Shown here: positions 42,058 to 64,000 of the stretch, piece after piece | Layout: each line of letters opens with the position of its first letter | Position numbering within the stretch: the first letter of the stretch is position 1 | Origin: Mytilus trossulus | Taxonomy: Eukaryota | NCBI RefSeq assembly: GCF_036588685.1 | Contig: NC_086380.1 | Location: forward strand, 79,670,001-79,734,000 | Length of the DNA stretch: 64,000 nt | Reading direction: 5' to 3' | Made by a program: the position numbers and the translations under genes | The notes under the pieces: generated by a model | Database searches by the model: none | Seen by the model: only the letters and a program-made list of their open reading frames with translations | What the model was told of the DNA's origin: nothing

Positions 42058-45000
42058 ATGACACTGATTTATGGACTTACTCTCATTGTTTGTGGTAAGA
42101 ACTCATTTTCTTCATTATCAACAGTTATAAACGAAATCAATATACAACAGAATGGAGTATGGTATTCAATGAGAAAACTTTCTACCACATATAATTGAGA
42201 GTGTAAATAGGGAATATGTCAAAGAGACAACTCGACCAAACGTCAGATAACAGCCATATGCCATCAATGGATCTTCAACGTAGTGAGAAAATCCCGCACC
42301 GGGAGGTGGTCCTCAGCTGGTCTCTAAATACAAATAAGTGCTAGTCCAGTGACAATGGACGTCACAATAAACTTCAAAACATATAAAAGAACTCAAATGG
42401 ACGTCATACTTAACTCCATAACATATAAATGGACTAAAATTGTATAGTCAGATCGACATACATAAAAATTTGTAAAGGTTCCGCGGAACCCAGTGTCTTG
42501 CCTACTTTTGCTGTTAATCGCAGGCTTAACATCAACGAGGGAAAACATCAATAAAATATTCCTCTTAAAACTATCGTTTGATTGTATTTTTAAAGCTTCT
42601 GTCCAAGTTTGGTAAAAATCCAGGATAGTTTATGAATCTTATAAATGTTTTAAAACTTTAACTGCAGACTGTATGTAATGTTAACTGAAAGAAAAACTAA
42701 GTCCATCTTTTATAAGTTAAATACAGATAAACAGGTACAAAATTTTAACAAATTTTTTTTTCTAGGTACTAGCTTTTCATAATAAACAAACTTCTTTCAG
42801 AGTTTAGTACAGATCCAAAATAGAATAAGAAAGTTATAAAAAATTTAAAACTTTAACCACAGAGTGAATTTGTTATAGGTAAAATACGGAAAAAATGCAA
42901 TTTTATTTTTACATAATTTACTTTTGGATACAATCCTATGATCATAAACAAGCTTCTGTCCAAGTTTAGTAGAAAATCAAAGGTAGTTTAAGAAAGTTAT
43001 TAAAATGCCAAAAACGTTAACCGCAGAGTTAATATTTGTGGACGTCGCCGCCGCCGACACCACTTTTTCGACTAAAGTCGAAGGCTCGACAAAAACAGTG
43101 TCTATTGTCAATGGCATTTATCATAAGTCTAAGAATGATAGTTTTACCAGTAACAATGACACTGTTACAAGATTGTTTGACTCCAGAAACGGATTTAAGG
43201 TGAGGTGAGGAGGGGTAGGTAGACATAGGGTCAGTTGCCAGGGACCCTTCTTTTATGGAAAAAAATTGAAGCATCACTAGAACGGTCCCACTCTTGAGCA
43301 GTCAGCTGGCCTTCCTTATGCAATTTCATGATCCACCAACGGATTCTCCAAAACACACGTGACCAACCAGTGAATATAATGCTAATATTGTTCTAATGTG
43401 TTTAGTTTCAGTAATTTATGCTGCAAGTGTATGTGAAGATCACAGCACACAAGCATGTCAAAGACTAGCTGCCATTAAACCAGACATGTGTCAGGACAAC
43501 TGTACATCTAGTCTATGTCCCAGAACATGTGGCCGCTGTCGTACGTACAAACTAAATACATATAAATATAGGAAGATGTGGTATAAGTCAATCAGACAAC
43601 TACGACTATGTGTATGGGCTATGCTCATTGTTAAAGGCCGTACGGTGACCTATAGTTGTTAATGTTTGTGTCATTTTGGTCTTTTGTGGATAGTTGTCTC
43701 ATTGGTAATCATACCACATCTTCTTTTTTATAACTCTTCATCCAAGTCACAATTACTAAAAGTAAACCATTACATACGTCAATATACGGTCTTCAACACG
43801 GAGCCTTGGCTCACCACCGAACAGCAAAGTAATAGGGCTAAAAAAATAATACTACTGTAAAACCGTTCAAACAGAAAACCAACGATCGAATCTACATGAC
43901 ATAAACAACGAGAATTCGACACATGTATGAACCACACCACCAAACGACAACTACTTGATTATCATATTCCTGACTTAGGACAGGTGGAAACAATTGCAGC
44001 AGGATTCAATTTTTTAACGGAACCAAACCTTCTTCCTTATCTGAAACAACAATGTAAAATCACAACATAGAAAGACACACTATAAAATATCAATTGAAAT
44101 GGTTCAATAAAAAACGTAGTTACAAAAATGAGCATATACATTTTTGATGAGTTATGTAACCATCAATCTACTTACTCGTGCACAACACTATCTCTTATGA
44201 GTATTTTGCATGAACTGTTTTTAAGTGAAGTGAGTTTAAAACATTATTTCTTTCCATGTGGATTTCGTCAATGTATTATGGATTTCACGATTTTGTGATT
44301 ATATTGATACAAGTATTCCAATTGTGTTTATGGTAGATACAATATAGCAAAAAGCATACTGTTTTTTTTAAAGATTTATATGAAAATGTTAGATAATAGT
44401 ATTATTAGTTAGATTCTAATCAAATATACAACGGCTTCTATGATGTTTGATTTTGCAAATACAGCGTAATCTGCTTAAGAGACAACCGACCACTAATTGT
44501 ATGTCCTATTTAATGCATTTGATATACTGTGGATTCAATATTATTCATTAGATACCAATTTTGTGGATTTCGTGGACACAGTCAAACCACGAAATTAAAT
44601 ATTCAACGAATGATAATTTTTTTTATAGGTTTGTATGCAGACTTCAGCAATACCTCGAAATCAAATATCCACGAATATGCATTTTTTTCTCAATCCACGA
44701 ACATTGGTATCCACGAAAATAAATGAATCTACAGTAGATTGAACATGCATTAAAAGACCACCTGCCTTATACGACCATATTTTTGCTCTAGCCTACGTAA
44801 TCTTTTAAAACAGGTTGTGCTGTGACATTGATTGCTTGTTACATACATGTGTATATGCAAATTTATGCTTAGTATATTAAATTGTTGAGAAGTAGATGTT
44901 GTTATCCTTTCAGCTCTGAAATGTTTCTCGTGTGAAAATGTCGACCATCCATCAGAGTGTAACCAAACAATCCAATGTGGTAGTATGGCTATGGTAAAAT

Positions 45001-48000
45001 ATTGACATTTTAACTAAAGATAGTATATAACACTACAGGGAGATAACTCTGTAAATATCAGCGATCGTTTTAATCACGTTCTATTGTTAAGGAAATGTAA
45101 ATCTCAAAATAAGTGTTTGTCTAACTGCTATAATTTATCCGATGAAATCTTTCCAATGAAGTGTGGGGTTCAAGTATTTTGAAACCTTTATTTTTTGGTT
45201 GAACCAAAGTAAATATGCTGTCCAACTTTAATGAAAATTAAACGAGCCAAATTAATTTTAGTCAAGGTGTTTGGTACCACCTTAACTAATAAAAAAGCTT
45301 TTCTTCAATGACAAATTAACTAATGAAGTGTATGTGTGCTGTTGCTGAGATCAACTTTTTGTTGCGTTCTAGTTGCTCAGGCTTTTAATTTTCTATAATT
45401 GTGTTTTTTCTATAAATATTTTATAGTTGATCCTTTTTTTTTCTTAACCGTAGCATTGTCAGTTTATTTTTCTACTTAGAAATGTTACATAAATGTTCCT
45501 CTGGTATCTTACGTCTCACTTTTATAAAAATTTCCAGCCGTTTGACTTGTCAATTATAATTTTCATTATGTACGAAACGTTATTCCGATTTCATATAGTA
45601 GAATAGTGGTTTATATTTATTGCCAGTACCTTCTAGATTTGAATCACTGACATGAAAAATCTCGAATGCCTTACGATGAAATAGTAGTGTAGTACTTTTC
45701 ATTGTTTTCCTTTTTCAATTTGACGTACAAATCTTTTTTAAAAACTCCCTAAAAAATCCCTAAAAAATCAACAGCTTGTAAATATTTAACAAATAAACTG
45801 ATTGGTTTGAGAAATAATTATTCACAATACAGTTTTATTTCTCTCCAGGCATGTATCGCGACACAAACAGTAACAACACAGCTCCAGAAAAAGTACCAAC
45901 TAAACTGTGTAGATAATAAAGCAAGTACATGTATACTAATTTTATTATAGAGATGATAGTATATTACTTTATCCCCGGCTTAGTATATATCTAGGATTGG
46001 TTAACGCACGTCGTTACAAAACCCATAGCCCCTGGGTGTTGCTAACTCATATCCCCGGACGTTGCTAACCATTATCCCGGGGAACTTTACGCAAGTTTTC
46101 CTTTGTCCCATGATCGCTCCTTGTGAAATATTGAATTCAGTACATTATCCATGATGTTTGTAATTAAATATTTGATTCATTAACGGTTGTGTCCTATTAT
46201 GCTGATCATTTACACTCATTTCATTAAATGTATCTCTTGACTGCCACATTTTCAAGGAATGGGACTACTGGGTTGCGTTCAATATCGTAGAGGCTATCTA
46301 GTGCTACATCGATTTATGACTATTGAACGTGTATTTAGCCCAGCTGCTACATAGATATTGATAGCAGCTACGTAGCTGCTACGTAGCCGCTACGATATTG
46401 AACACGACCCTGACCTAGCTATGCAAATTACCCACGTTGACGTCACACCATCTATGGCATAATTCGCTCACAACTTTCAGTGGGCGCCAAATTTGACTCA
46501 ATCCAGTTTCTCTGTCTCCGTATTAAAAACGTCTTATATTTGATTACCTGTAGGGTTCTACCAAAGGTAGTACAGACCCTACACCCCGTAAAAAATATAT
46601 GTAAAATTTCCAAATTTCAATAAAACTTTTTTAGAGAATGAAAAAAAACGTTGTTTTTGCGTTACTTTTTGTACCCGAGTTTCCATAAAACTCACCCGAT
46701 TCGGACTAAGACCGGGGATAAATTCGTTATCTACGTTCATATCCGTAGATATGAACGTAGATAACTTATAATATCCTGAATAGGGCTCTTCACGGTTAGT
46801 TCAGTCATATTGGATAGGGGGCAGATTTTCATAATGGAGGTGGAAATGGTATGAAAAATACGGGAAAACATCATTAAAACAGGGCAGTTGCTTGGAAACA
46901 CACATAGGATTTCCCAAAATTCATACTATTTTCACCTCTTTCAAAAAAATCTGCCTCCTATCAAATAATGCCGAACTAACCGTGAAGAGCCCTATTGTTT
47001 GATGTTCAATGACTTTGAAATAGGTGAATACACTTTTTCGTCGATTCGGGATGATTTAAAGCTTGACACTTTGGTTTTTATTGTAGATAAAGTCTAAGAC
47101 CATTTGTTTGGCTTGACACATTTTATCGCCTGTTGTATATTTTTATAAAACATGTGTTGATCTCATCCGTTGGAAGTCCGTATGAAGATTTGAACTTGCT
47201 CAAAATTTTCCACCGATCAGAACGGACGTCGACGGATAAAACATACTCTAAACGGACATTAAATGGATATGGACGGACGTCTAACGGATAAGAACACACG
47301 TGTAAAGGATTGAAAAAACACCCGTTAAGCCTCGGTCACACCTTACCGGATAGCACGAACGGACGCCTAACGGACGAAAATAAAAGTTGTCCGTTGACAA
47401 AATTGTTATCCGTTAGGAGTCCGTTGATGAAATGTACGGAAGCGTATTAGCGCCACACATTTTTTTTTTTTATTTTTCTTCTTATGTTTGCGTTATATCG
47501 CAAAGGTTTGCGTTATATCGCAAAGGTTTGCGTTATAACGCAAAGGTTTGCGTTATATCGCAAAGGTTTGCGTTACAACGCAAAGGTTTGCGTTATAACG
47601 CAAAAGGTTTGCGTTACAACGAAAAGGTTTGCGTTATAACAAATATAACGCAAAGGTTTGCGTTTAACGCAAACATAGGAAGAAAAATAACAAAAAAAAA
47701 TGTGTGGCGCTAATACGCTTCCGTAGAAATGCCCAAATAAAACGGACGCGTATAACAAATGCTTAACGGACATACACCGGATATGCAACGTACATGTACG
47801 AGAGACCGAAACGTACTGGACAGAACGGGTGTCGAACGTACATCCAACGGACGAGTACATTCGTTACGCGTCCATTTTATTTGGTCAGTACATCATCGGA
47901 CTCCCAACGGATAACAATTTTGTCAACGGACAACTTTTATTGTCATACGTTAGGCGTCCGTTCGTGCTATCCGGTAAGGTGTGACCACAGCTTTTCATTA

Positions 48001-51000
48001 GAAAAATCATATCATAACCTTTTAGGGAATATGTGTACTATCTTCACGTTGATTCACATCAAAATCTACCTTGACCAAAACCTTTAACCGGACGCGGGAC
48101 AGACGGACACGAACGGATGAACAAACGAACATACCGAAAAACATAATGCCCCTAATTTACAACTATAAATAGCATACTTACTTCACTATCTAACAGTTGC
48201 ACATACAAATGTACTTATATTCTACAAAGAAACTGATAACTTTATAATCAATAAATTATGATGATGGCAGTTTTATACGACCTTGACTGGCCATACAGCC
48301 CTCGCAAGCTCGGTAATAAGTTATTAAATGGATGATATCTCTAAAAGAGAATTCAGATAGATACATGTATCTTATTTAATTTGGGTTCTTTTTTGTTTTT
48401 GCATAGATATGCACAGACCTTTATGGCGTTGTTCCGAACCGTACTGTTCCGAATGTCAGGCGGGAAGTTGATTTGTTTGGAGGTTGCTGTGCGACAGACC
48501 TCTGCAACAAGTATGATGAACCTGATAAAATACCGGCGCCTACTGCGCATGCACATCATGGTATGTATCACTTTTTTTTTAAATAATTTACAGACTGTTT
48601 AAAAAATCGTCGGAAAGGATATAATATTCAAACTTATGGATCTGGGATTCATACACATCTAGTTTGTGAAGAGATATTTGATTTAGTAAAATGATATCAC
48701 AAATGATATCACATTGATATCGTTATTGTTTTATTCATTATATTTTTATCATCAGGGGGATATTCAAACTCATAGATAAAAATAAACTGACAACATCATG
48801 GCTTATAAAGATAAAGATAAAAAGACAAACAAATATTACACAAGATACAGCATAGAAAACTACAGACAAAGCAATACACACCCTCCCAAAAGCTGGGGTG
48901 AACTCAGGTGCTCTGGAAGGGTAAGCAGATGAAATAATTGATTAATGTACGTGTAAAAATGTGTATCGCTTTGTTTTAATTCGTCAACATGCCATATTAT
49001 TCATGAAAGAGGTGGAATACACTATTTTATTGTTTGGAATGAACATTTTATGCTATCGTATTAAATTTCACTTGAAAGAATCGCTCGTGCATGTAACAAC
49101 ATACTAGATTTTGACGAAAGAAATGTATGTATTACTGAAAAATTATTACACAAGTGTTTTCGAAGTCACAAACTAGTCAAAACATTTACTAAATGTCATC
49201 ATCAGTACAAGGACATCATTAGTACATGTAACTATAAATTAACATGCAAATGATTATTCAATGCCCGACAGGAGAGAGCATTCTGTAATACATAATATAT
49301 ATATTTCAGTTCACACTAACGGTAATATTCATCTAAGCACACATTGTCATGTAATAGACTATATATTTCAGTTCACACTAACGGTAATATCCATCTCAGC
49401 ACACATTGTCATGTAATAGACTATATATTTCAGTTCATACTAACGGTAATATTCATCTTAGCACACATTGTCATGTAATAGACTATATATTTCAGTTCAC
49501 ACTAACGGTAATATTCATCTCAGCACACATTGTCATGTAATAGACTATATATTTCAGTTCACACTAACGGTAATATTCATCTCAGCACACATTGTCATGT
49601 AATAGACTATATATTTCAGTTCACACTAACGGTAATATTCATCTCAGCACACATTGTCATGTAATAGACTATATATTTCAGTTCACACTAACGGTAATAT
49701 TCATCTCAGCACACATTGTCATGTAATAGACTATATATTACAGTTCACACTAACGGTAATATTCATCTCAGCACACATTGTCATGTAATAGACTATATAT
49801 ATTTCAGTTCACACTAACGGTAATATTCATCTCAGCACACATTGTCATGTAATAGACTATATATTTCAGTTCACACTAACGGTAATATTCATCTCAGCAC
49901 ACATTGTCATGTAATAGACTATATATTTCAGTTCACACTAACGGTAATATTCATCTCAGCACACATTGTCATGTAATAGACTATATATTACAGTTTACAC
50001 TAACGGTAATATTCATCTCAGCACACATTGTCATGTAATAGACTATATATATTTCAGTTCACACTAACGGTAATATTCATCTCAGCACACATTGTCATGT
50101 AATAGACTATATATTTCAGTTCACACTAACGGTAATATTCATCTTAGCACACATTGTCATGTAATAGACTATATATTTCAGTACACACTAACGGTAATAT
50201 TCATCTCAGCACACATTGTCATGTAATAAACTATATATTTCAGTTCACACTAACGGTAATAGTCATCTTAGCACACATTGTCATGTAATAGACTATATAT
50301 TTCAGTTCACACTAACGGTAATAGTCATCTTAGCACACATTGTCATGTAATAGACTATATATTTCAGTTCACACTAACGGTAATATCCATCTCAGCACAC
50401 ATTGTCATGTAATAGACTATATATTACAGTTCAAACTAACGGTAATATTCATCTTAGCACACATTGTCATGTAATAGACTATATATTTCAGTTCACACTA
50501 ACGGTAATATTCATCTCAGCACACATTGTCATGTAATAGACTATATATTTCAGTTCACACTAACAGTAATATTCATCTAAGCACACATTGTCATGTAATA
50601 GACTATATATTTCAGTTCACACTAACGGTAATATTCATCTCAGCACACATTGTCATGTAATAGACTATATATTTCAGTACACACTAACGGTAATATTCAT
50701 CTCAGCACACATTGTCATGTAATAGACTATATATTTCAGTTCACACTAACGGTAATATTCATCTCAGTACACATTGTCATGTAATAGACTATATATTTCA
50801 GTTCACACTAACGGTAATATTCATCTCAGTACACATTGTCATGTAATAGACTATATATTTCAGTTCACACTAACGGTAATATTCATCTCAGCACACAATG
50901 TCATGTAATAGACTATATATTTCAGTTCACACTAACGGTAATATTCATCTCAGCACACATTGTCATGTAATAGACTATATATTTCAGTTCACACTAACGG

Positions 51001-54000
51001 TAATATTCCTCTCAGCACACATTGTCAAATAATAGACTATATATTTCAGTTCACACTAACGGTAATATTCATCTCAGCACACATTGTCATGTAATAGACT
51101 ATATATTTCAGTTCACACTAACGGTAATATTCATCTCAGCACACATTGTCATGTAATAGACACAGTCGTCTGCCAATATTTAGCCACAAACAGTGGTTGT
51201 CATCTGCCATGCGTGTCGACCTTGTGTCCCACAACCTGTGGAATGTGTTGTAAGTTAAATTTTTAACCATACAACAACATATTTGATATATTAATTGATA
51301 TTTCTGGAAAATATAATTATGTTATAGATTGCATCACGTAAAAACTAGTAAATTTCATTAGACTGTTTCCTTTCTTTTCTCTGCTTGGCTCTGACAGCTG
51401 GACAACGAGGTTGGAGAAGACTAACGCATGTTTCAAGGGAGTCTATGTGTCAAAGTTTATTTTAGCCAGTGCGAATATTTTGTCAACAAACTAACCATAA
51501 TACCACTATCAAGTTCATTAATAGATAACTACATTAAAATAATTATGACATTCGGATAGTAGTTATAAAGCATCACATGGAGTCGAATAGATCACACATA
51601 ATTATGCATTTTATGTATTGGATAACCTCCCATATATCAGGGGAAAGAATCATAAACAAAAAAAATATTTTGATGTAAAATATGTTCCTTCATATTTTGC
51701 GATTCCCTTTTAATGACTTCATGTCTCAATATATTCCGTCAATTTTGCTTTAACCAGTTTTTATCCGTATAAGGCTAAGACTACTTATATAAAGCATCAG
51801 TTCACGGAATATGCAGTAGTTTTAATTTTCCGCATAAAATATGCAAGCAGACAAACAAATTCAAAACAAATAGAAAGAAAAAAGAAGACGTATCTACGGG
51901 ATGTTATAATCGGTATACTCAAGGTACACATATACACAACCGGATACTAACAAAATAAGCACACATTATTTATCAATTATGACCAAAACATAAAAAAATC
52001 CAACCAGTAATAAACCATAAAAATGCATAAAAATTAGAAAGACTCATACATTGTAAATCTTTGGCGGATCCCGGGGGTGGGGGAGGGGGTGGGGGTTGGG
52101 GTGGGGGGTCGGACCCCCTTTTTCGGTCGATCAATGTATTTGAATGGAGACATATAGTTGGACCCCCCTTTTTAAAATGGCTGGATCCGCCCCTAAAAAT
52201 AGACTTAAATGTATAACACTTTACAATGTCGAAAGTCGAATCACACTTATCTGTCTACGAGATCAAAAATGAATATTGCCTGTTATCATGCAGTTTTTAT
52301 TAAGTAAAATTTTCTTTTAAAGACTCAAAAGAGTGACGAAAGATACCAGAGGAACAGTCACTCATAAATCGAAAATAAACTGACAACGCAATGGCTAAAA
52401 ATGAAAAAAAGACGAACAGACAAAAAATAGTACACATGACACAACATAGAAAACTAAAGAATAAGCAACACGAACCCCACACAAAACTGGGGGTGACCTC
52501 AGGTGCTCCGGAAGGGTATGCAGATCCTGCTCCACGTGCATTTGGCACCCGTCGGGTTGCTCATGTTATTATAACAAATCCTGTTAATAGTCTCATTCAA
52601 TAGGTCACATTCATGAAAGGGAAGGGAATTGTATTTACGACGTAAGGAGCATATCTGATATCATCTGTGAAACTGATATTCTATTACATTTTTAATATGT
52701 TTAACATTATCGTAACCCACTGATGGTTTGTAAAATAGTAGCAATAAACGATAAAGAGTTGGACTCATTTGAATGTAAATTGGTTTTATTATAAATTGCT
52801 GGGTGATGTATTTGCATGTATTTGGTTTTGATGTTATATTTGTTATTCTCGTGGTGTTTTGTCTGATGCTTGGTCCGTTTCTATGTGTGTTACGTTTCGG
52901 TGTTGTGTCTTTGTTCTCCTCTTATATTTAATGCGTTTACCTCGGTTTTAGTTTGTTACCCCGATTTTGTTTTTTTGTCCATGGATTTATGAGTTTTGAA
53001 CAGCGGTATACTACTGTTGCCTTTATTTACAAACATTAGATATGTATATGTAACAAATCACTTTTATTGTTATAGCACTTACGTGTTATGAATGTTCGGC
53101 AACTAATAACCCAGGGAATTGTTCCAGCAGAGTCCATTGCAATAGTGATAAGGTACGGTAAATTTCGAGTAATTAATCGGAGATTTTTTTGGCAGAAGTC
53201 GAATCCTCAGCGGATCTTTCCATTAATTTCATTATTCTCACGAACACAATTTCTTTTCCTCACATCAACATTATCATCGTCTGCATTGAAGGAATGAATA
53301 TCGACACTCGTTCATCTAATAATGAAATATAGCAAAAGAAAAAAAATCTGTTGTTTCGAGGTAATTTGTGGCAAATTTTAAATTTTAGATAGGTATAACG
53401 TTAAAATTTTCTACTTCATTTGAGGTGTTAAGGCTTTTGTTTACTTTCGCAGAACACTCCCGAACATTCTTATATCGTGTTTGGCTTGCCTAAGCTTTAT
53501 ATCTGCATGTGTGGATAACTATTGAATTATATGCGACTGTCATATAAGTGAGAGGTTTAGCTAGCTTTACAACCAGGTTTAATCCACAATTTTCTACATA
53601 AGACAATGTCTTTGCCAAGTCAGAAATATGAAAGTTCTTTGCAATGCGATGAATGTGTTTAAGTTTTATAATTTGACATTTGATTATAGACGTTCCTTTT
53701 TGAATTTCATTTGAGTTCGGTATTTATGTTATTTTACTTTTAACTTGTTGAATATTCAGGTGTTTTTTTTTTTATTTCTTTAAGTGTTGTGATGCCAGTA
53801 AGATGTTTTGATATTTATGCAGCATTTCAGTCTTCTATCATACACTATTTTAATAATGAAAAAATCATGATGCTAAACATGTTGCGTCTAGTCTAGTTAT
53901 ACATTCTTTAGCATTTAATTCCTTTTGGATTTGTTGTTTGAAGACAAAGTTTTCTTTTAGCTGCCTATATAAATATAGGTAGAAAAATCTAACAATTATT

Positions 54001-57000
54001 AATATATAGTCACAGTTTTCAAAAAAAATACGACTTCACTGAATATATTTTATTTTTAATTCTAATATGACGTCCTTATTACGCATTGTAAACAAAGCCG
54101 TGTTCCGTGGTTTTTTAACTTATCAAATATGAATTATAATACAGAGACTCCTCGGGGAGGAAACGGGAAACGCCAAACGTTTTTACTGTATTTTCTTACG
54201 CTTCGACCTATACAAATACTGAATTTGTCATAATAGAATCGAAATAATTCCTTCATGTCATGCTCTATGCTCATTTTAACATGGGTAGGCATTATAGTTG
54301 ACCACATTTTACACCTCGCTAACGCTCAGTGTAAAATATCGATAAATATAATGCCTACCCATGTTAAAATGAGCATAGAGCATGACATGAAGGAATTATT
54401 TCTTAATTTGAAATATGCACTTGGTGCCAACCCTGATAATTTATACCGAACCAGTTAAGATTTGATAAACGATCTCAAATGTTTTATATTTCGTGCTATA
54501 GGAAGTGTGCATTGCTATAGAAACCCATCAATTTGATTTTCACGGAGGATACAAGCTTGGTTGTGCACCAAAAGAGGTATGTTACTCAGGTCATTTTAAA
54601 AGAACAGCAGAAGAATACCCGATTAAATATTTCAACACAATCTAGGATTTCATACTTGACACGGATTAAATGCTTTTTGAATTTTTCATTTTGGACAACG
54701 AATTCTAATGCTCGATGGAGTTCAAATATTTTATAGACTTGTAAGTGGAATAAAAGGGGCGTGATATACCGAATGGGAATATTCAACTCAGACTTTGGCA
54801 AATCCACGAAATTAAGTTTAGTTTAAACATATTTTATTTGTTAAAGTACAAATTGGATAAGACACAAGTCAAACAGACTTATGAAGTCTTCTCCATTTAA
54901 CATTTATAGCAATATAATACAAAAATATATGTATGAGCATGCATGTAAAGAATGGTATATCTAAATATATATATAAATATGGATCAAAAGACGGAAAATT
55001 GAAGATTGAAGAAAAAGAAAACAATAATAATACAGAAAAAATAAATAAAAAATAAAAATAAAAATAAAAATATATAATATATAAANNNNNNNNNNNNNNN
55101 NNNNNNNNNNNNNNNNNNNNNNNNNNNNNNNNNNNNNNNNNNNNNNNNNNNNNNNNNNNNNNNNNNNNNNNNNNNNNNNNNNNNNNNNNNNNNNNNNNNN
55201 NNNNNNNNNNNNNNNNNNNNNNNNNNNNNNNNNNNNGTGTGTGCGATCATGGTTTGCTACCTAGACAATTTGAAATCTTTCCGAACTTTTAATAAACTCA
55301 AAGACATTTTTGAAAATGTTTCGGTTTTGCTCTAAAGTAAGAAGACAACTACCCGAGGTAAGTAGTTCTATGTTAATTTTACAATCATTTGGAAGCCAGC
55401 GAAGACTTTCAAACATTTTATTTCGTATGTTTGAATATAATATACATTTAAAAAAGAAATGATAGGAATCTTCACGATTAACACCACAGCGGCAGGAAGG
55501 GTCAGAAATAATGTTGACCCTATATAGATCATAGTTTAAGGATGATGCAAAACATCGAAGTTGGGTGAGAATTATATTCAATTTTCGATTTCCAAATTCA
55601 TATTGCTTCGAAATTAAGTATCCACTAAAATACGATTTCTCCTACATGGACGAATATAAGTAAATCTATTTACCAGAATTGTTATCACATCAGCAACACG
55701 ACGGGTTCCACATATGGAGCAGGATATGCTTACCCTTCCAGAGCACATGAAATCACCCCTAGTTTTGGTAGGGTTCGTGTTGTTTATTCTTTAGTTTTCT
55801 ATGTTGTGTCATGTGTACTATTAGACATGTTACGAAAAGGTATATTCACGACGCTGAGGTTGACAATTTACACTTTAAATGAGGGGAACATGTCAAAATA
55901 CAAAAGAGATTAGCTGTATATAGATATTATAAATATTGCGTATGGAACGAATATTCAATAATATTTGAACCACAAGAAATATAAGAAAAAGATATTCAAA
56001 AATTCTTTGATATTTTTTAATAAACTCTAATGCGGAAAGTTTTGGGGGAAGGGTGCAGATAAATGTGGAAGATGTGCAGAGCACGGAGACACGGGGTACA
56101 CACTTAGGGAACTACCATTTGATTTTTATGGGAAGGGGGGGGGGGCTAGGACGAAATTTGAAAAAAAGTTGGCAGGACCGGAGTTTTGAGTAAAAAAAAT
56201 GCAGGCTGATACACTTGCCAAAACAAAAAGTCAGGACGACAATTTAGTTTAAAAAAATGTACAAATGTGTCTTATCTAGGGGTATGCAAGCCCTTAAAAG
56301 ACTTTGCAAGTATCCTTAGGTTTTACCAATTTATCTACTCGGGATATATATGTAACGGTAATTTTCATATACTTTGTTATGAAACAAAACAAAGAAGTGA
56401 CCACATGTATTTTAATCCAGTTATTTGCACCCTAATTGTATCTAACGTGGTCTATTTTAAAACAACCAAAGAGCGTTTTTATATACGTTTTAGAAAAAAA
56501 TACTGCCGGTCTTTTTTCTATTTCAGGTACAATGCTAGGGAGGTACCAGTTGTTGTTAGGGGGAGGGGAGGGGCATAAAAAAGTCAGAATAAACTTATTA
56601 AAAAGGATGAACCGAATAGAGTGATAAATAAAACAGGACAGTGAGAGATTACAAAACAAATGCAGACCAAAATTTGTCATCTCCACCCCCACCCCCCACC
56701 CCCCACCCCAACCCAACCAGACTATAGAGCACTGTGCAGGATTAGTGGAGCGACAGATTGGATTGTTCAGGAACTGTAATAATAAAATAACTAATCTATA
56801 AATGCATGGCTTACTATGTAAATATTATCAATCTAGAATCGAACGAACTTGTATAACTCTTAGACCCCCTTTTTTCCAGCCCCCTTTTTCGAGCCCCCTT
56901 TTTGTCCGGCTCGCTCACTCCTGCACGCGTACACCTTTCACGTCCTATATAATCGCCAGCAATGATACCCAAAAAGCAATTGTCATATTCGATGTAACAC

Positions 57001-60000
57001 TATGATGTTCTAGATAATGTGATTTATATTAACCACGAAGCACATGATTTGAAGTTTACCTGTTCAAATCTATAATCAATGTTTTGACACCGTCCCCACA
57101 TTTAAAGTCTTATTTGTCAACCTCAGCGTCGAGAATATACCTTTTCGTAACATGTCTATTAGTTGTATGTTTGTCTTTTTCATTTCTAGCCATGGCGTTA
57201 TCAGTTTTATTTATGAGTTTGACTGTCCCTTGGGTATATTTAGTCCTTCTTTTTTAGACATGCAATAATTTACTGACGCGGGATATAGATGGGATATGTT
57301 GTGACACTAACTTTTGCAATGGAAACTATGTACCATCAACAACTGTGATTCCTTCTACCTCAACTGTATATGACAACAATCTCGGGATGCCTACAGGTAC
57401 CATTATCACTTCTTATATTCAATAAACGATTTGCTTAATAACATTGAGAATTGAAATGGGGAATATGTCAACGAGACAACCACCATCAGCAAAACATAGT
57501 CGAATGCCATCAATGGGTCTCAACACACCAAGAAAATCCAGCAACTGGAAGCGTGCTTCAGCTGGCCCCTAAACAAAAATGTGTACTAGTTCAGTGATAA
57601 TGAGGTCATATTAAACAACAAAGCAAGTAAGTTGTGGTATTTTTGTAAAGAAAGAAACCCGCTTAACTTATTATTGATAATTAATGTTAAAGTCGCATAT
57701 TTTAATATTTATTTCTGAAAAGTTTAAACGTGTCAACTTTGTTTTACACTTTCATAAATAGTCGCATCAATCGTTTAAAAGATGTTTAACATGCCATTAC
57801 TATTTTGTAATGCTGAAAATAACAAAATATTCAAATTTATATACATATAAAATATAATGTAAAGGTTAAAACAAATGCAACTATAACCATTAAGAGATAA
57901 GACATAGCACCAATACCATATTTCAATCTTAAAATGTCAATGAAATTGAGTGACAACAATCTATCTAATTACCCGCTTCGTAAAAACACGAGCAACACGA
58001 TGGGTGCTACATGTGAAGCACCACCTGAAACCAACCCAAGGTTTTGGTGGGGTCCATGTTGTTGTTGTGTCCCTATTTTTGCGTTTGTTCACACGCATCT
58101 TTGACTATGTTAATATAATGAAATTTGATGCTTCTGTCGTACAAGTGAGAGGTTCAGCGCTATAAAACTTGGTTAATCTCACCATTTTCTACATTTGAAA
58201 ATGCCTGTACTAAGTCAGGAATATGACAGTTGTTTTTTGGTCATTTGATTAGGGACTTTCTGTTTTGATATTCCTCGGATTTCAGTATTTCTTTGATTTT
58301 ACTTTTCACGGTTTTAGTGGTATAATTGATAATTGTTAATTGTAGAGATTATACATCAAATCTAGTACTAGTATGTGAAATTATATGAAAACGCCCATTT
58401 TAATTATTTAGATGTGGGATATTTTATTATTTCCCCGAGGGTATCACTAGCCCAGTAGTCAGCACTTCTGTGTTGACTTGATTTATCATTGATATGTTTA
58501 TAATTATAAATTAACTGTTAACAACACTTTTTTGAATTACTAAGGCTTTTCTACCTCATGATACCTTAGCTGTATTTGGCAAATTTCTTTGGTTATTTTC
58601 GGTCCTTTATGCTCTTCAACTTCGTACTTTATTTGGTCTTTAAAACATTTTTGATTCGAGCGTCATTGATTAGTCTTTTGTAGACGAAACGCGCGTCTGG
58701 CTGTCGCATATGTAAAATTTGAATCAATGTATCAATGATGAGTTTATTATGTCTACAAAGGTTGTTATCCAGATCTTATAAATGGCTGCCCTGTTGGATT
58801 TTCTAGAGAACGAAACAGTTGCTATAGTATTGGACGAAAATGGAAAACTATGACAGACGCCAGAGTAAGTATAACAATATATAGGACGTTTAAAAATATC
58901 TTAATCTCGAAGCTAAATACAGAGTGCAACATATCATGTTAGGAAACTTTTGTGGATTTATTATTATTTATTGGATGCCAATTTTCGTGGATACAGGTGA
59001 ACGAGTTACTGTGGATTAATTACTATGCATTGGATACCAATTTTCGTGGATACAGGTGATTTTTAAATATTCAACAAATTGCACATTTTCTATAAGCTTG
59101 TATACAGACATTGGAAAACAGCGAAATTAAATATCACCGAAATGTTTTCCCTCAATCCACGAAAATTAGTTCCCATTTAAATGATTGATTTTACAGTAAA
59201 AGCTTTATGATTAAAGTTCAGGTATAAACCTTATTCAAAATTTACAATTCCTTGCTTGAACCTATAGGAGCATTCAACCGGATGGACCATGTACCTCGAA
59301 TGCATTATTTCACCACCGGCAAAGTAATACAACATACTATAAAGTTTTCGCTCAAAAACTGTATGTAGAAAAAACATGTCCCTATGAAAAAACGGACGGA
59401 GGGACAGTGGTAGCAAGAATATGTCCTGCAAAAGCTGCATGAATTTTAATTTTAAAATTTGGGACTGCATATCTGATATAACTGTATTATGAATTGCCTT
59501 ATCAATAAAATTATATTTACTGGTAATTCATATCTACGACACCAACTTATTTCATTCTAAAGCAAAAATGCACTAAACACCAAATTAATAAAGCAGTGTA
59601 AAACATAGATAGATACTGAATCATAAAAACAGATAAAAACAATGGAGCAAAAAAGCAATACCAAGATTTTATACCGGGGTATTAGCCTCACGTATTTATG
59701 TTAACATTGCTAACTTTTATTGACCAAATGGTTGCGCTTCAAACGGAAACAAGTTTCTAGAATTATTTTCTATTGTAGACGGAATGTTTGAGAAATTGCA
59801 GCAGACTTGCAATTATAAGCAGCGAAAGGGAAAACGAAGACATTACACATTTTTTACAACGTGTTTCACACCATGCAAATGCTTTCCATGGAGTGAATGA
59901 AGGTTGTATTATCTTATCCCAGGCATAGATGAGAGGGGGAATGACCTTTATCGGGACTCCGGGATCGGGTGTTTATAAGCTCGGAATTTCGGGAATGATC

Positions 60001-62444
60001 CTTTCGGAATCCGGGAATTATTTTTTTTCAAATTTCGGGGTGTCGGGATTTAAATTCGGGATTACGTGATTTCATGTTTGTAAGTCCTGGATTTCTGGAT
60101 TAGGATCCCGCCGATCACCCCCCCCCCCCCCCTTTTCCTCTAGATTACCTAAGCCGATATTTGGCACTTTTTGGGAAATTTCAGGTCCTCAAATCGCTAC
60201 AATATTGTACTTCTTTTGGCTTTGTTACTATTTTGATCTGAGCGTCACTTATGAGACGAAATGCGCGTCTGGCGTATCAAATTAAAATCCTGGTACCTTT
60301 AACTATTGTATTATATGTCCTTAACATATCTTTCTATTGTATAAAATGGTATCAAATGCATTTTTCTAAATGAAATATATTGTTTTGCAGAACAAGGAAA
60401 CGAAACTTTTTTATAAACGCGCATACTTAAGTTCCGATCAGTCCAGCAAGATTAAGCTCATTAGATTCATTTGACATTTTTTCTGATTAGACTGTTATGT
60501 ATGTAATATGCTAAACTGATTTTCATATGTGTATGTAAAATACTAAGATGTCGTATTATTGCTAATGAGACGACCATCATCTACACAGCAACTTTTGCAT
60601 AGGTACTATTTATGTACTATTTATGTACCACAAATCTGTAGTACGAAATCTACTATTGTGTTACTTACGAATTATTGTAATATTTAAGTATCTGTATTTT
60701 ACAGTACTTGATTTGTACTTGAAATTTAAGTACTACAGTTTTTTGGTTGCATGGTTACATTTTCAGGATTTTGGACGTTTGTCCTTTTTCAAATTTCATG
60801 AAGTTATGATGTTCAAATATGGAATACTGTGATCATTGTTGGTATTATTTTGGTACCAATATTTTGAGTACAAATCAAGTACTGGAAAATACAAGTACCT
60901 AAATATTACAATAATTTTAAAGTAAAGAAATATATAGTACTAAATATTACAAGTAAATTTCCAGTACTACAGATTTTAAGTACAGAAATAGTACCTATGC
61001 AAAAGTAGCTGTGTAGAATCCAAATGACGGCGATGTAAATATAGGCAACAGTAGTATGCAACTGTTCGAAATTCACAAATCGATTGAGAGAAAAACAAGC
61101 CGGGGTACGAACCAAAACTGTGGGAAATACATCAACTATAAGAGGAGAACAACGACACAACAGAAACATTAAAATGCAACACACACAGAAACGATTTATT
61201 AGATAATAAAAGGCATTTTCCTAACTTGACACAGGACATTTTAAGAGAAAATGGTGAGTTGAACCTGTTTTTGAGGCTAGCAAAACCTCCCGTTTTAATT
61301 GCAATGTTAAATACTAGTATAACACTAAAATGACAACATTACATGGCAGGAAAAGATACAAATAAATTGAAGAACATATATAGGTTCACTGTTTATAATA
61401 CACCACATCGACTGGCACTGTTTACATTGTTGTTTTCGATTCATCCACACGCCATAGTAGCTATATTTTGTGTTTTGTTTTCGAGTCATCCACACGCCAT
61501 AGTACCTATATTTTGTGTTTTGTTTTCGAGTCACCCACACGCCATAGTACCTATATTTTTGTTTTGTTTTCTAATAGAAGGTACTATATATTTGGAAAGT
61601 AGTTGACCATTTAACCAAATATTTTTTAATGGTTTTTATGTTTCGGTATTTTCTCAACAGCATCATTAGTTGTTTTGTATTGCACTATTTGTTTGCAAAT
61701 ACGCTAGATAAGACTACAACGGTGATGATCATTAAAACTACATGGTTGATATTAAGTGTTCAAACTCTAATATTTTCATTATTATTTGTCGCCTCTGATG
61801 GCAAGGGTATCACGTTTTCTGCATGAAACTTAATAAATAATGAAAATCATTCAAAGACACTATATTGTATTTCTATCATGACAATCGATGCTTGTATAAT
61901 ATATAACTGGGTGAAGGGGCTCAGTAGTGCAGTGTCCTAAGTAGTCGAACGACTATTTACTTAACGTATCAACGAGGTTGTGAGTACTAATCTAGCAAAT
62001 GAAATGTACGCTCGACTCTAATCTACTTTGACTAGGAGTTTCAGATTTTATACTTAAGGTGGATGGGTCCCCTAGCACTCTGGCTTCCGCAATCAATAAA
62101 AACTGACCGCCATGAAGTGGCGTTTTACACTAATCAATCAATCAATTAATCATTCAATCGAGGTTTGTTTGTAACTTTTTTCAGATTATCACTATTGGAT
62201 TGAAGCTTATAGAAATCACGGTGGTAACAGCCCATGGCATTGGCCCAGTATTGGTTCTAGTTTGACCTACTCTCATTGGAGAAACGGATCGCACCCTCAC
62301 CAAAGTCATTATTTGGAACGTTGTGCCAGCATAGGTAAAGGGGAATGGAATCATCATTCTCCTCATGGATATTACTGGGATCATCATAGCTGTAATGCAA
62401 AATTTGCTGCACTATGTGAATTTCCCCTAGGGAATGATCCTTAA
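42058..62444 (+). CDS. Secreted mosaic protein: signal peptide - ShKT - Ly6/uPAR-like - ShKT - Ly6/uPAR-like - Ser/Thr linker - His-rich C-type lectin domain; 12 exons, ~464 aa
   Basis: Exons 42058-42094 (MTLIYGLTLIVC), 43406-43540 (VSVIYAASVCEDH...CPRTCGRC), 44914-44993 (PLKCFSC..EC..C), 45849-45920 (ACIATQ...YQLNCVDNK, GC donor), 48407-48560 (ICTDL...CCATDLCN), 51112-51249 (VHTN...CPTTCGMC), 53076-53152 (SLTCYEC..NC..C), 54502-54576 (EVCIAIE...YKLGCAPKE), 57258-57396 (TC...CCDTNFCN), 58761-58864 (GC..GCPVGF..NSCY..MTDAR), 59779-59902 (TECLRNCSRLAIISSERENE), 62185-62444 (YWIEA..WHW..YSHW..ERCA..WDHHSC..ALCE). Sum 1395 nt, phases consistent; AATAAA at 62454. An assembly gap lies in one intron. 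Confidence 0.82.
42455..43096. mobile_element. Probable non-autonomous Helentron/Helitron-like repeat in intron 1
   Basis: Internal ~180-bp imperfect repeats (aagcttctgtccaagttt..., aaactttaac), a gcc microsatellite, and a terminal hairpin ttcgactaaagtcgaa followed by ggctcgacaaaaa. Confidence 0.45.
45968..46722. mobile_element. TIR element with a nested 140-bp MITE (46270-46410)
   Basis: Outer tttatccccggcttagt ... actaagaccggggataaa; inner gggttgcgttcaatatcgtag ... ctacgatattgaacacgaccc. Confidence 0.6.
46779..46996. mobile_element. Palindromic MITE
   Basis: aatagggctcttcacggttagttc ... gaactaaccgtgaagagccctatt, with mirrored interior. Confidence 0.75.
47329..47991. mobile_element. Long-TIR MITE containing a nested element (47435-47725) with internal ~20-bp tandem repeats
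   Basis: Outer ggtcacaccttaccggatagcacgaacggacgcctaacg is inverted at ~47948-47986. Inner tacggaagcgtattagcgccacacattttt ... aaaaatgtgtggcgctaatacgcttccgta is flanked by direct gaaatg. Confidence 0.85.
49296..51161 (+). repeat. 62-bp minisatellite, ~30 copies, made of a splice acceptor plus the start of the second ShKT exon
   Basis: Unit ctatatatttcag|ttcacactaacggtaatattcatctcagcacacattgtcatgtaataga. The last copy runs into unique exon sequence (..HCHVIDTVVCQYL..). Confidence 0.98.
54241..54402. mobile_element. 162-bp hairpin MITE with a perfect ~56-bp inverted repeat
   Basis: gaaataattccttcatgtcatgctctatgctcattttaacatgggtaggcattata and its exact reverse complement. Confidence 0.8.
55086..55236. 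other. Assembly gap (151 N)
   Basis: Run of n. Confidence 1.
55261..55610 (-). mobile_element. 3' fragment of a non-LTR retrotransposon ORF2 (C-terminal CCHC-type region, CR1/L2-like)
   Basis: LTQLRC..SSLNYDLYRVNIISDPSCRCG..EDSYHFFFKC..YSNIR....LLTSG...IFK.V.EFIKSSERF*; 5'-truncated. Confidence 0.7.
55822..57158. mobile_element. ~1.3-kb TIR element inserted into a Penelope 3' fragment
   Basis: tagacatgttacgaaaaggtatattcacgacgctgaggttgacaa ... ttgtcaacctcagcgtcgagaatataccttttcgtaacatgtcta. The host repeat breaks at ...atgtgtacta and resumes ...gtttgtctttttcatttctagccatggcg. Confidence 0.8.
58605..58745 (+). repeat. Hammerhead-bearing dispersed repeat
   Basis: gagcgtcattgattagtcttttgtagacGAAAcgcgcGTCtggc at 58658-58701. 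Confidence 0.7.
60581..61016. mobile_element. Palindromic TIR element (ta|cacagc...gctgtg|ta)
   Basis: ctacacagcaacttttgcataggtactattt ... aaatagtacctatgcaaaagtagctgtgtag. Confidence 0.7.
61430..61572 (+). repeat. 45-bp tandem repeat, 3 copies
   Basis: tcatccacacgccatagta recurs at 61441, 61486 and 61531. Confidence 0.85.
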
Positions 62445-64000
62445 CTTTCCTTTAATAAAACTTCCAACAAGGTTGCCTATTTAACATTTTGATTCGAGCG
62501 TCACTAATGAGTCTTTTGTAGACTAAACGCGCTTCTGGCGTAAATATATTTCTTTTATCCTGGTATCTATTATGCGTGTATTTGTAAGATTGTTTGTATG
62601 TTTTTAACGTTCAAGGATATTGATGTCAATTTAATGGAATTGTATACAATTGTTATACTAATCCTGGTACCTCTGATAACAAATTATACAAGTGATATGT
62701 TAAGCTTGCTATAAAACTAGGTTTAACGAACAATTTTCTATAAGACAAAATGCGTGTGCCAAGTCATGAATATAAAAAAGAAAAGTCACAAAAATACTCA
62801 ACTCCGAGAAAAATTCAAAACGGAAAGAAATGGAAAAATTAAAAACTCAAACAACTCAAACGAATGGATAACAGCTGTCATATCCCTAACCTAGTGTATG
62901 AATTGTTCTCCATTCATTTGATGAGTTTGAGCATATGCTTTTGCAATTTGGTAAGGGACTTAAATAATTATCTATTTGTATACCCCGGAGTTCGTTTTTG
63001 TTTTTAATATTTCACTTTGTATCATCAGAAATGCAGAAAATGTATTGATGTCTTCCTCTTATGCAATTAGCTACATTTGTTGAAAAGCCTTCGGAATTTT
63101 GCGTGATTCAATCTCGGCAACTTCGTTGGTTTTTTTTATTTTCAACTCTTTCGATTTGAGCGTAAAACATTACATTTTTGTAAAACAAACGCGTGTTTGT
63201 TGTGCAAAAGTTGAATTCTGGTATCAATGATCGCATTTACTTGCAAATGACGTACAATAGATAGTATTTAAATGAATACACGCAACCAGGACATTCACTA
63301 TTACGTATTCTGTTTCTACACCTCAAACGGCACAGAACAACATGTTTTACTTCATCCAACAAATGGACCAGAACATGTTTTCTTTTTGTATTAATATATG
63401 TTTGTGTTTTCATGATACGAATGAAATAATATAAGTTAAGCTTTGGCTATTTTCATTGGATTTAAGATTGTGTCTGGAAAAAAAAACAAAAAACAAAAAC
63501 AAAAACTGAACTTATATGTACACATAGCAAATTCCACGTTTGTAATGTAGGATGCTGATACTGAGATTGTTTTCAAATTAAATTTATTTTGTTTATATTT
63601 TATCTGTTTTGCAACTCTTATTTACACGTGAAAACGTGAATATGTTACATATTTAAATACCATTATTAGTGTCACAGAAAAAACGAGCTCCAATGCAAAT
63701 TTAAAAAATCTATAAAAATTACCAAATTTAATTTTACACTGACCAATTTCAATATATACCAACTTATTATTGGAATAAAACTTAATATACTGCAATACCG
63801 TAGTGCCTAAATGTTCTCTCTGATTGTTTTTTATTCGACCACAACGTTCTCTACGTGTCTTTGCCACTTGTATGTTGTATGTTTTCATACTGCTAGAATC
63901 CATCTATAATAAATTGTTCTGTATTTCTGAAGTTACATTGTTACAGTTTTTTTTATTTGAATATTGATTTTAAAAACTTTATTTGTTATAAAAACAAGTT

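Follow-up and report, generated by a model that had tools for sequence, protein, structure and literature searches.

A secreted mussel mosaic of two ShKT–LU modules and a C-type lectin domain, with a likely convertase site in a three-finger loop and a predicted disulfide between the modules

A gene of the mussel Mytilus trossulus encodes two ShKT domains, each followed directly by a Ly6/uPAR (LU) domain of the three-finger fold, and ends in a C-type lectin domain (CTLD), which raises the question of what such a secreted mosaic does. The gene was located in a stretch of 64,000 nucleotides (NCBI RefSeq assembly GCF_036588685.1, contig NC_086380.1, positions 79,670,001 to 79,734,000 of the forward strand), referred to hereafter as the window. 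An earlier note, made from the sequence alone, had taken the product for a recognition-plus-effector protein, assembled by exon shuffling and internal duplication and probably restricted to its lineage. The reading that we prefer is that of a secreted pro-protein, clipped within its first LU domain (LU1) and stapled by disulfides into a pseudo-dimer, which would serve as an extracellular binding adaptor with a Ca2+-independent CTLD in mucus or haemolymph defence. We give this reading a probability of roughly 0.45.

The locus is one real gene, which is already in databases as an uncharacterised entry. Reading the window and locating its splice sites gave twelve exons at 42058–62444 on the + strand, and the open reading frame (ORF) after splicing encodes 464 amino acids, identical at 464/464 residues to XP_063397807.1 (P0011), an uncharacterised RefSeq protein of M. 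trossulus. The orthologues of M. galloprovincialis and M. edulis shared 426–430 of the 464 residues and were colinear over a stretch of 151 Ns in the gene. All exons were bounded by AG acceptors and GT donors with the sole exception of intron 4 (GC-AG), whose GC donor was kept in 4/4 paralogous genes examined; the lack of exon 4 in two M. coruscus models is likely due to this donor. Among alternative donors for exon 11, four disrupt the frame; two others, at 59860 and 59905, preserve it but were rejected as well, RefSeq agreeing with 59902. The join of exon 7 to exon 8 was present in contigs of 4/4 public runs and that of exon 6 to exon 7 in 3/4, in a check of exons 6–8 that covered 4 of 13 listed small-share runs, whose RNA nature is a guess. 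The join of exon 8 to exon 9, over the N stretch, rests on the colinear orthologues and on full-length family ORFs rather than on reads. Paralogous and homologous ORFs of 445–473 amino acids were complete on Logan contigs of 1.4–1.5 kb, indicating that the complete architecture is a single spliced message in relatives. In view of the RefSeq identity, the orthologues and the family ORFs, a gene fusion across the Ns was rejected.

Hydrophobic 19-residue windows scoring above 1.3 started only at residues 1–7 of the protein. Intron phases were 0-1 for the signal exon, 1-1 for both ShKT exons and 1-0, 0-1 and 1-stop for the CTLD exons, while the LU exons had phases 1-0, 0-0 and 0-1 in module 1 and identically in module 2. 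The two modules were identical at 40/121 positions, with a score of 191, whereas 1000 shuffles with the Cys residues fixed averaged 77 and never exceeded 148. Much of what the earlier note had proposed is thus borne out: a 464-residue product of one gene despite the N gap, a signal peptide with no transmembrane tail, two parallel modules with matching phases, an internal duplication of ShKT plus LU, and phases compatible with exon shuffling (class 1-1 ShKT exons, phase-1 LU flanks). Four features were absent from it, namely a dibasic loop in finger 3, a paired seventh Cys, the GC-AG intron and a 30-copy acceptor array.

An LU domain has 10 Cys in 60–90 residues, an Asn past the tenth Cys, and disulfides 1-5, 2-3, 4-6, 7-8 and 9-10, according to the accessible text of PMC6600238. 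This pattern was found in LU1 (C61–C141, then N142) and in LU2 (C209–C276, then N277); by analogy, disulfide 7-8 of LU1 would be C110–C135. In the full protein, Pfam reported Toxin_TOLIP/UPAR_LY6 twice (Toxin_TOLIP 27.4 bits, above the cutoff of 21.2). Since the CTLD filled the full-length fold searches, the ShKT and LU folds were assessed on P0021, a paralogue 56% identical, modelled from a 56-sequence alignment with a predicted local distance difference test (pLDDT) of 83.8 and a predicted template-modelling score (pTM) of 0.66. The 39 top rows among its 50 VIA rows were three-finger domains, with GPIHBP1 (Z 7.9, root-mean-square deviation (rmsd) 3.2, 74 aa), CD59 (Z 7.8), PSCA and Lynx1, all non-toxin proteins, among the top matches; Foldseek was concordant. 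The strand pattern of the P0011 model was the same as that of the three-finger paralogue model. The gene layout typical of LU domains, which does not define them, consists of two LU exons with phase-1 flanks and an intron at the tip of loop 2. It was seen in part: the phase-1 flanks are present, but each LU domain is spread over three exons. A search of the ESM Atlas with residues 18–150 gave no usable match, and one with the homologue P0053 gave a single match at 0.75, to a mollusc UPAR_LY6 cluster, which is a lead only.

When a ShKT-LU paralogue was used as phmmer query against 1.84 billion representatives, 93 matches (50%-identity clusters) were returned, and the 10-Cys pattern parsed 85 LU domains from 59 of them (34 gave none). 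The loop between Cys7 and Cys8 was long across the family (mean 22 residues). KR or RR occurred in finger 3 of 66/85 domains, with Gly ahead of the basic run in 50 of these 66; the sequences are related, and the counts are hence not independent events. The same pairs occurred in 4/85 in loops I and II, which are longer, while random windows of the same length gave 12.2 (maximum 23) and shuffled loops 18.8 (maximum 32). In second LU domains, which lay outside the search query, the pair was present in 17/22. It sits 4–17 residues ahead of the CC, between variable flanks, and the loop was poorly modelled, with residues 115–131 below pLDDT 50 in P0011 and block 121–130 at 51 in P0021. LU1 of P0011 keeps R126-R127, without the Gly, and R127 is invariant across the 11 closest homologues; in this clade the LU2 loop is reduced to 11 residues and its dibasic site is lost. 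As in convertase substrates, the protein is secreted and its conserved dibasic site lies on a segment that is exposed and flexible. Gly-Lys/Arg-Arg is the classic signal for prohormone convertases and amidation. We conclude that the finger-3 dibasic loop is likely a convertase site. Basic finger-3 loops, often with Gly-Lys/Arg-Arg, were also seen in LU-repeat proteins without ShKT, some of them with Ig, SRCR or VWA domains (P0077, P0087, P0092, P0111, P0112, P0116, P0117 and P0121), so that the dibasic loop may predate the ShKT-LU cassette.

The same loop could instead stay uncut, on a single chain, as a binding patch for acidic partners such as sulfated glycans, microbial surfaces or acidic proteins. 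According to the accessible text of PMC6600238, LU domains usually bind through their loops. In the present family, many finger-3 loops hold runs of 3–5 basic residues. The preference for Gly, the fixed window before the CC, the variable flanks and the predicted disorder suit a protease site better, and we consider an uncut patch unlikely. A cut loop might also mature a signalling ligand or pheromone, its newly exposed terminus (an amidated ...Phe-Gly end in relatives) binding a receptor from a scaffold held by disulfides, like that of two-chain hormones of the insulin type, while the CTLD localised it. The predominance of Gly-Lys/Arg-Arg, often Phe-Gly-Lys/Arg-Arg, in the finger-3 loop of the family would fit such a role, and three-finger pheromones and receptor modulators of other animals are described in the accessible part of PMC13719153. 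Apart from the Phe, however, the residues preceding the Gly are poorly conserved, the P0011 clade lacks the Gly and no longer has its LU2 site, and the loop is found also on LU proteins fused to VWA and Ig domains, which resemble matrix or adhesion proteins. A signalling role consequently appears rather unlikely.

Both ShKT domains (C22, C30, C41, C50, C54, C57 and C172, C180, C189, C198, C202, C205) have the six-Cys spacing with the terminal C-x3-C-x2-C. On the P0021 model the fold matched four ShKT structures, MMP23 ShKT, a Brugia ShK-like peptide, OspTx2a and Nak1, with rmsd 1.7–2.0 Å over 34–36 residues and Z 2.2–2.6, and the top PDB sequence match was a ShKT protein (E 0.82). Solved structures thus matched the predicted models of ShKT, LU and, as described below, CTLD, in line with the folds that had been assigned by eye, Pfam being weak for ShK. 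Each ShKT has an extra Cys (C45 and C193) and so holds seven, whereas the LU domains (ten each) and the CTLD (eight) have even numbers. The seventh Cys was present in 47/47 parsed ShKTs of 25 two-module representatives (three domains unparsed) and in 0/18 single-module proteins. In P0015 it was lost from both modules, each of which nests within 7-Cys mussel clades in the tree (support 99/96 and 99/88). Because the seventh Cys tracks two-module proteins and was lost jointly in P0015, an inter-module disulfide C45–C193 is predicted, this being the simplest reading of the pair. The pTM of the two-module P0021 model is compatible with packing of the modules and is not counted as support. C45 lies within an N-C-T sequon.

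ShK and three-finger folds are toxin scaffolds, and 'Toxin_TOLIP' is itself the Pfam label of the LU domain; the protein might therefore be a toxin-like effector, a blocker of K+ channels or nicotinic acetylcholine receptors aimed by the lectin at parasites or predators. The Lys-Tyr channel-blocking dyad is absent from the sequences of both ShKTs, which are embedded and fused to LU domains and are not free peptides. The extra Cys, five residues before the fourth canonical Cys, lies where the dyad Tyr of ShK is found, which argues against channel block. The best LU matches are non-toxin proteins, as listed above, and no sites that would free the domains flank them. The dyad is neither necessary nor sufficient for channel block in the accessible text of PMC6409789. 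We regard a toxin as very improbable.

On the reading of a clipped and stapled adaptor, a subtilisin-like proprotein convertase of the secretory pathway would cut after R126-R127, where finger 3 of LU1 has its exposed tip. Most relatives would be cut after Gly-Lys/Arg-Arg in one or both LU domains, and C-terminal amidation would then be possible. The two chains would remain linked by C110–C135 and by the predicted C45–C193 bond. The latter would staple the ShKT domains together, making of them a dimerising hub and not toxins. The mature protein would then present two three-finger protein-binding faces and a Thr/Ser-linked, Ca2+-independent, His-rich CTLD, and could link a protein target to another ligand; defence in mucus or haemolymph would be the most likely setting.

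The CTLD of the full-length model matched codakine (Z 15.3, rmsd 2.3 over 126 residues), and exon 12 alone scored 25.8 bits for Lectin_C. Its Cys pairs are C312/323, C340/456 and C425/448; C304 and C344 are an additional pair, C344 lying within an N-C-S sequon. Within the full-length protein the CTLD is too divergent for Pfam, and Pfam-based surveys would thus miss it. At the Ca2+/sugar site 2, S-H(-P) replaces EPN/QPD and W-D-H replaces WND, and no EPN/QPD or WND-type motif was present in any (ShKT-LU)2-CTLD protein of the family listed. From these replacements the CTLD is predicted to be Ca2+-independent. As a recognition-plus-effector protein the molecule is consequently weakly founded: the domains are there, but the ShKTs have no Lys-Tyr dyad and an extra Cys in the dyad region, and the CTLD has no Ca2+/sugar motifs.

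The composition of the CTLD, 11% His, would suit binding of mineral or metal, and the protein could be a component of shell, byssus or another extracellular matrix, comparable to lithostathine, struthiocalcin or perlucin-type proteins, with cleavage as the trigger of assembly. Lithostathine and struthiocalcin were among the top Foldseek and VIA rows, one truncated paralogue is automatically named 'perlucin-like', and the ShKT-LU cassette occurs on VWA and mucin-like proteins. Those two rows, however, tie with many immune lectins (Z within 1), and no shell- or byssus-proteome record of the family accessions was found in the open-access literature. A matrix role seems improbable.

Several observations weigh against the clipped and stapled adaptor. 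The cleavage, the amidation and the C45–C193 bond are all predicted from sequence, and a mucosal role is assumed by analogy with other CTLs of bivalves (PMC10140915). The full-length P0011 model is moderately confident (pLDDT 63, pTM 0.38). Nineteen of the 85 LU domains, including LU2 of P0011, have no KR/RR, so that processing is not universal, and the site in LU1 is N-V-R-R rather than the furin consensus R-X-X-R. The ShKT exons 2 and 6 stay below the Pfam gathering score for ShK (PF01549; 14.1 bits per exon as compared with 20.9, E 0.07), and the ShK Z-scores are low, as expected for a domain of 35 residues. The single-module proteins group together in the tree, so that the association of the seventh Cys with two modules rests on about two independent events, and their count omits four short rows, P0067, P0069, P0079 and P0086, all with seven Cys; three of these look like fragments, and P0069 is possibly a true single module. 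Finally, unusual motifs do not preclude Ca2+ dependence in CTLs of bivalves, as described in the accessible text of PMC12842671.

The architecture is not confined to mussels, contrary to the suggested lineage restriction. With architectures assigned by family-built hidden Markov models, 15 of the 93 matches were exactly ShKT-LU-ShKT-LU-CTLD, 10 had the same two modules without CTLD and 14 were ShKT-LU-VWA; others included ShKT-LU-CTLD(s) and LU repeats with Ig or SRCR domains, and the cassette was found also on mucin-like proteins. Among ten representatives looked up, the two-module CTLD form occurred in Mytilus, Argopecten, Mizuhopecten, Magallana, Saccostrea and Ostrea, and single-module forms in the clams Mactra (VWA) and Mya (two CTLDs). 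One Logan protein was a two-module CTLD form with three EGF domains inserted. Judged by these sequences, the architecture is at least pteriomorph-wide (mussels, oysters and scallops) and ShKT-LU has been shuffled as a class 1-1 cassette. In one database model, P0062, a (ShKT-LU)2 region is combined with one of the glycosyltransferase-61 type, probably through an annotation fusion.

In its own genome, a search with the CTLD exon gave five matches, three tandem genes on C8 and two on C10; the C8 cluster consists of the present gene and two paralogues ≤110 kb downstream. More ShKT-LU genes were seen at G000:C10:47088001-47118000 and 47298001-47328000 (L018-L023), with exons identical to P0056, and a P0014-like gene, and there were weaker ShKT-exon matches at 54.07, 66.8-66.9 and 69.1 Mb of C10 and at 38.8 Mb of C12. 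The genomic family thus exceeds the five CTLD matches.

No paper on this architecture, or on the finger-3 dibasic site, was found in the open-access PMC and bioRxiv literature; six family accessions gave 0 matches in open-access literature, and the family was not matched in one supplement of PMC10140915. The architecture is not that of a family characterised there. The domain kinds are already known; what is new is the two mechanistic predictions, finger-3 cleavage and the inter-module staple, neither of which was found in the open literature searched. Three-finger domains are usually viewed as single-chain binders that are rarely mobile, and ShKT domains either as toxins or as autonomous appendages. 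Here a ShKT-LU cassette is shuffled over bivalve secreted proteins with a convertase-type site within a finger, and a co-evolving Cys pair makes the ShKT a likely dimerising hub. If the cleavage is true, it would be a new route to switch a three-finger protein on. More generally, and at rather less than even odds, we propose tentatively that a large, undescribed bivalve, and probably mollusc-wide, class of three-finger domains matures in the manner of prohormones, with a finger-3 cut, often amidated, yielding a two-chain LU domain and switching its binding on, with ShKT-LU as a mobile class 1-1 cassette that was shuffled to CTLD, VWA, EGF and mucin proteins, and with the seventh Cys, gained once the cassette had been duplicated, stapling the two copies into a covalent pseudo-dimer. 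The analysis also names a whole pteriomorph family overlooked by Pfam-based surveys of lectins and Ly6 proteins.

The features of the locus are collected in the table. Exon 6 is preceded by an array whose copies have 96% matches. Splicing to any of 29 upstream acceptors leads to a stop at amino acids 184–195, and the last acceptor alone gives the full ORF. The match of two contigs (X1 and X7) begins at the last acceptor rather than within the repeat, although the alleles of those runs may lack the array. The array thus resembles a 'mirage', a tandem repeat over an intron-exon boundary of which the authentic copy is found in mRNA (here X1 and X7, again with RNA as a guess). In the two C8 paralogues, arrays of 100 bp x 5 and 86 bp x 3 (G000:C8:79791486-79791998 and 79830208-79830460; L011, L015) repeat the 3' half of the first ShKT exon together with its donor, and all three genes of the C8 cluster accordingly have a mirage on a ShKT exon. 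An 84-copy, 60-bp tandem array lies between the gene and the next paralogue (G000:C8:79752245-79757274; L007-L008). Farther upstream, an unrelated hydrophobic, transporter-like exon at window 26606-26737 (+), whose product we take to be SLC22-like, has a mirage at 26700-33418 made of 129 copies of 52 bp that repeat its 3' end and GT donor, 109 units being AG-28 nt-GTRAGT; a 43-aa piece of this exon gave no match in Pfam or PDB. In intron 10, a 58-codon frame (window 59260-59437, +), stop-free after an AG and with AATAAA about 65 bases downstream, had no Pfam match and was dropped as a part of the gene; it is possibly a relic or an alternative last exon.

Table 1. Positions in the window of the exons and other features of the ShKT-LU-CTLD gene
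Feature	Position	Strand	Remark
Exon 1: start codon, signal peptide aa 1-12, ends in phase 1	42058..42094	+	
Exon 2: end of signal peptide and ShKT1 (C22-C57), class 1-1	43406..43540	+	Pfam ShK E 0.071, under cutoff; ShK-fold matches on paralogue model
Cys45 codon, seventh Cys of ShKT1; predicted partner Cys193	43501..43503	+	Pairing predicted
Exon 3: LU1 start (C61, C64, C73, C79)	44914..44993	+	Toxin_TOLIP E 0.0021
Exon 4: LU1 middle (C86, C104), then GC donor	45849..45920	+	
Exon 5: LU1 finger 3, long loop, CCxxxxCN, Pro/His linker	48407..48560	+	
Arg126-Arg127 codons, dibasic pair of LU1 finger 3; likely proprotein-convertase site	48458..48463	+	Cleavage putative
62-bp x 30 'mirage' array: exon-6 acceptor and first 50 exonic bases	49298..51161	+	
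Exon 6: His-rich linker and ShKT2 (C172-C205), class 1-1	51112..51249	+	Pfam ShK E 0.073
Cys193 codon, seventh Cys of ShKT2	51210..51212	+	
Exon 7: LU2 start	53076..53152	+	
Exon 8: LU2 middle	54502..54576	+	
151-N stretch within intron 8; model loses no exon there	55086..55236	.	
Exon 9: LU2 finger 3 (11-residue loop without KR/RR), CCxxxxCN, Thr/Ser linker	57258..57396	+	
Exon 10: CTLD N-terminal part (C304, C312, C323)	58761..58864	+	
Exon 11: CTLD helices (C340, C344)	59779..59902	+	
Exon 12: CTLD C-terminal part, His-rich, stop codon	62185..62444	+	Lectin_C E 1.9e-5
AATAAA, possible polyadenylation signal, ten bases past stop	62454..62459	+	

The arrays are like the 'mirage' minisatellites of amphioxus, in the accessible text of PMC3087553, in that an intron-exon boundary is repeated in tandem, spare splice signals come with the copies and transcripts use the authentic one; they differ in host only, and are here a side feature of the locus, of its two paralogues and of a neighbouring gene. 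Among Ly6/uPAR proteins, including the multi-LU uPAR and C4.4A and the mosaic three-finger proteins of molluscs, the 10-Cys pattern ending in C-N, the three-finger fold, the phase-1 flanks, the tandem cluster and the occurrence of mollusc mosaics are shared. What differs is the ShKT ahead of each LU, the LU spread over three exons rather than two, the long dibasic finger-3 loop, and secretion together with a CTLD. Mollusc mosaics of LU with C1q, FReD, Ig, MAM and 7TM are described in a 2026 survey of invertebrate three-finger proteins (PMC13719153, accessible part); ShKT-LU and LU-CTLD are unnamed among the architectures of its main text, and its supplements may hold them unlabelled. Whereas the LU domain is probably not a bona fide mobile module in the accessible text of PMC6600238, ShKT-LU here acts as one. 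With the ShKT proteins covered by the accessible text of PMC6409789 (ShK, MMP23 ShKT, mollusc CAP-ShKT and astacin-ShKT) the six-Cys spacing, two short helices and a close backbone are shared; the present domains differ in that the Lys-Tyr dyad is absent, that those of two-module proteins have a seventh Cys and that they are fused directly to LU over 1-2 residues.

The bivalve lectin mosaics of two lectin papers are likewise secreted, lineage-specific and uncharacterised, with one CTLD, and differ from the present protein at the positions where it has S-H for EPN/QPD and W-D-H for WND; the words ShK, Ly6 and uPAR have 0 occurrences in the texts of the two papers. As to how the protein would work, the nearest analogies are the insulin/relaxin family, which are two-chain, disulfide-linked convertase products, and the sodefrin precursor-like factors. 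In both, as here, the precursor is secreted, is rich in disulfides and bears a dibasic site on an exposed loop or tail. Insulin, however, has an unrelated fold and the sodefrin precursor-like factors are cleaved outside the three-finger core, whereas the putative site of the mussel protein lies inside finger 3.

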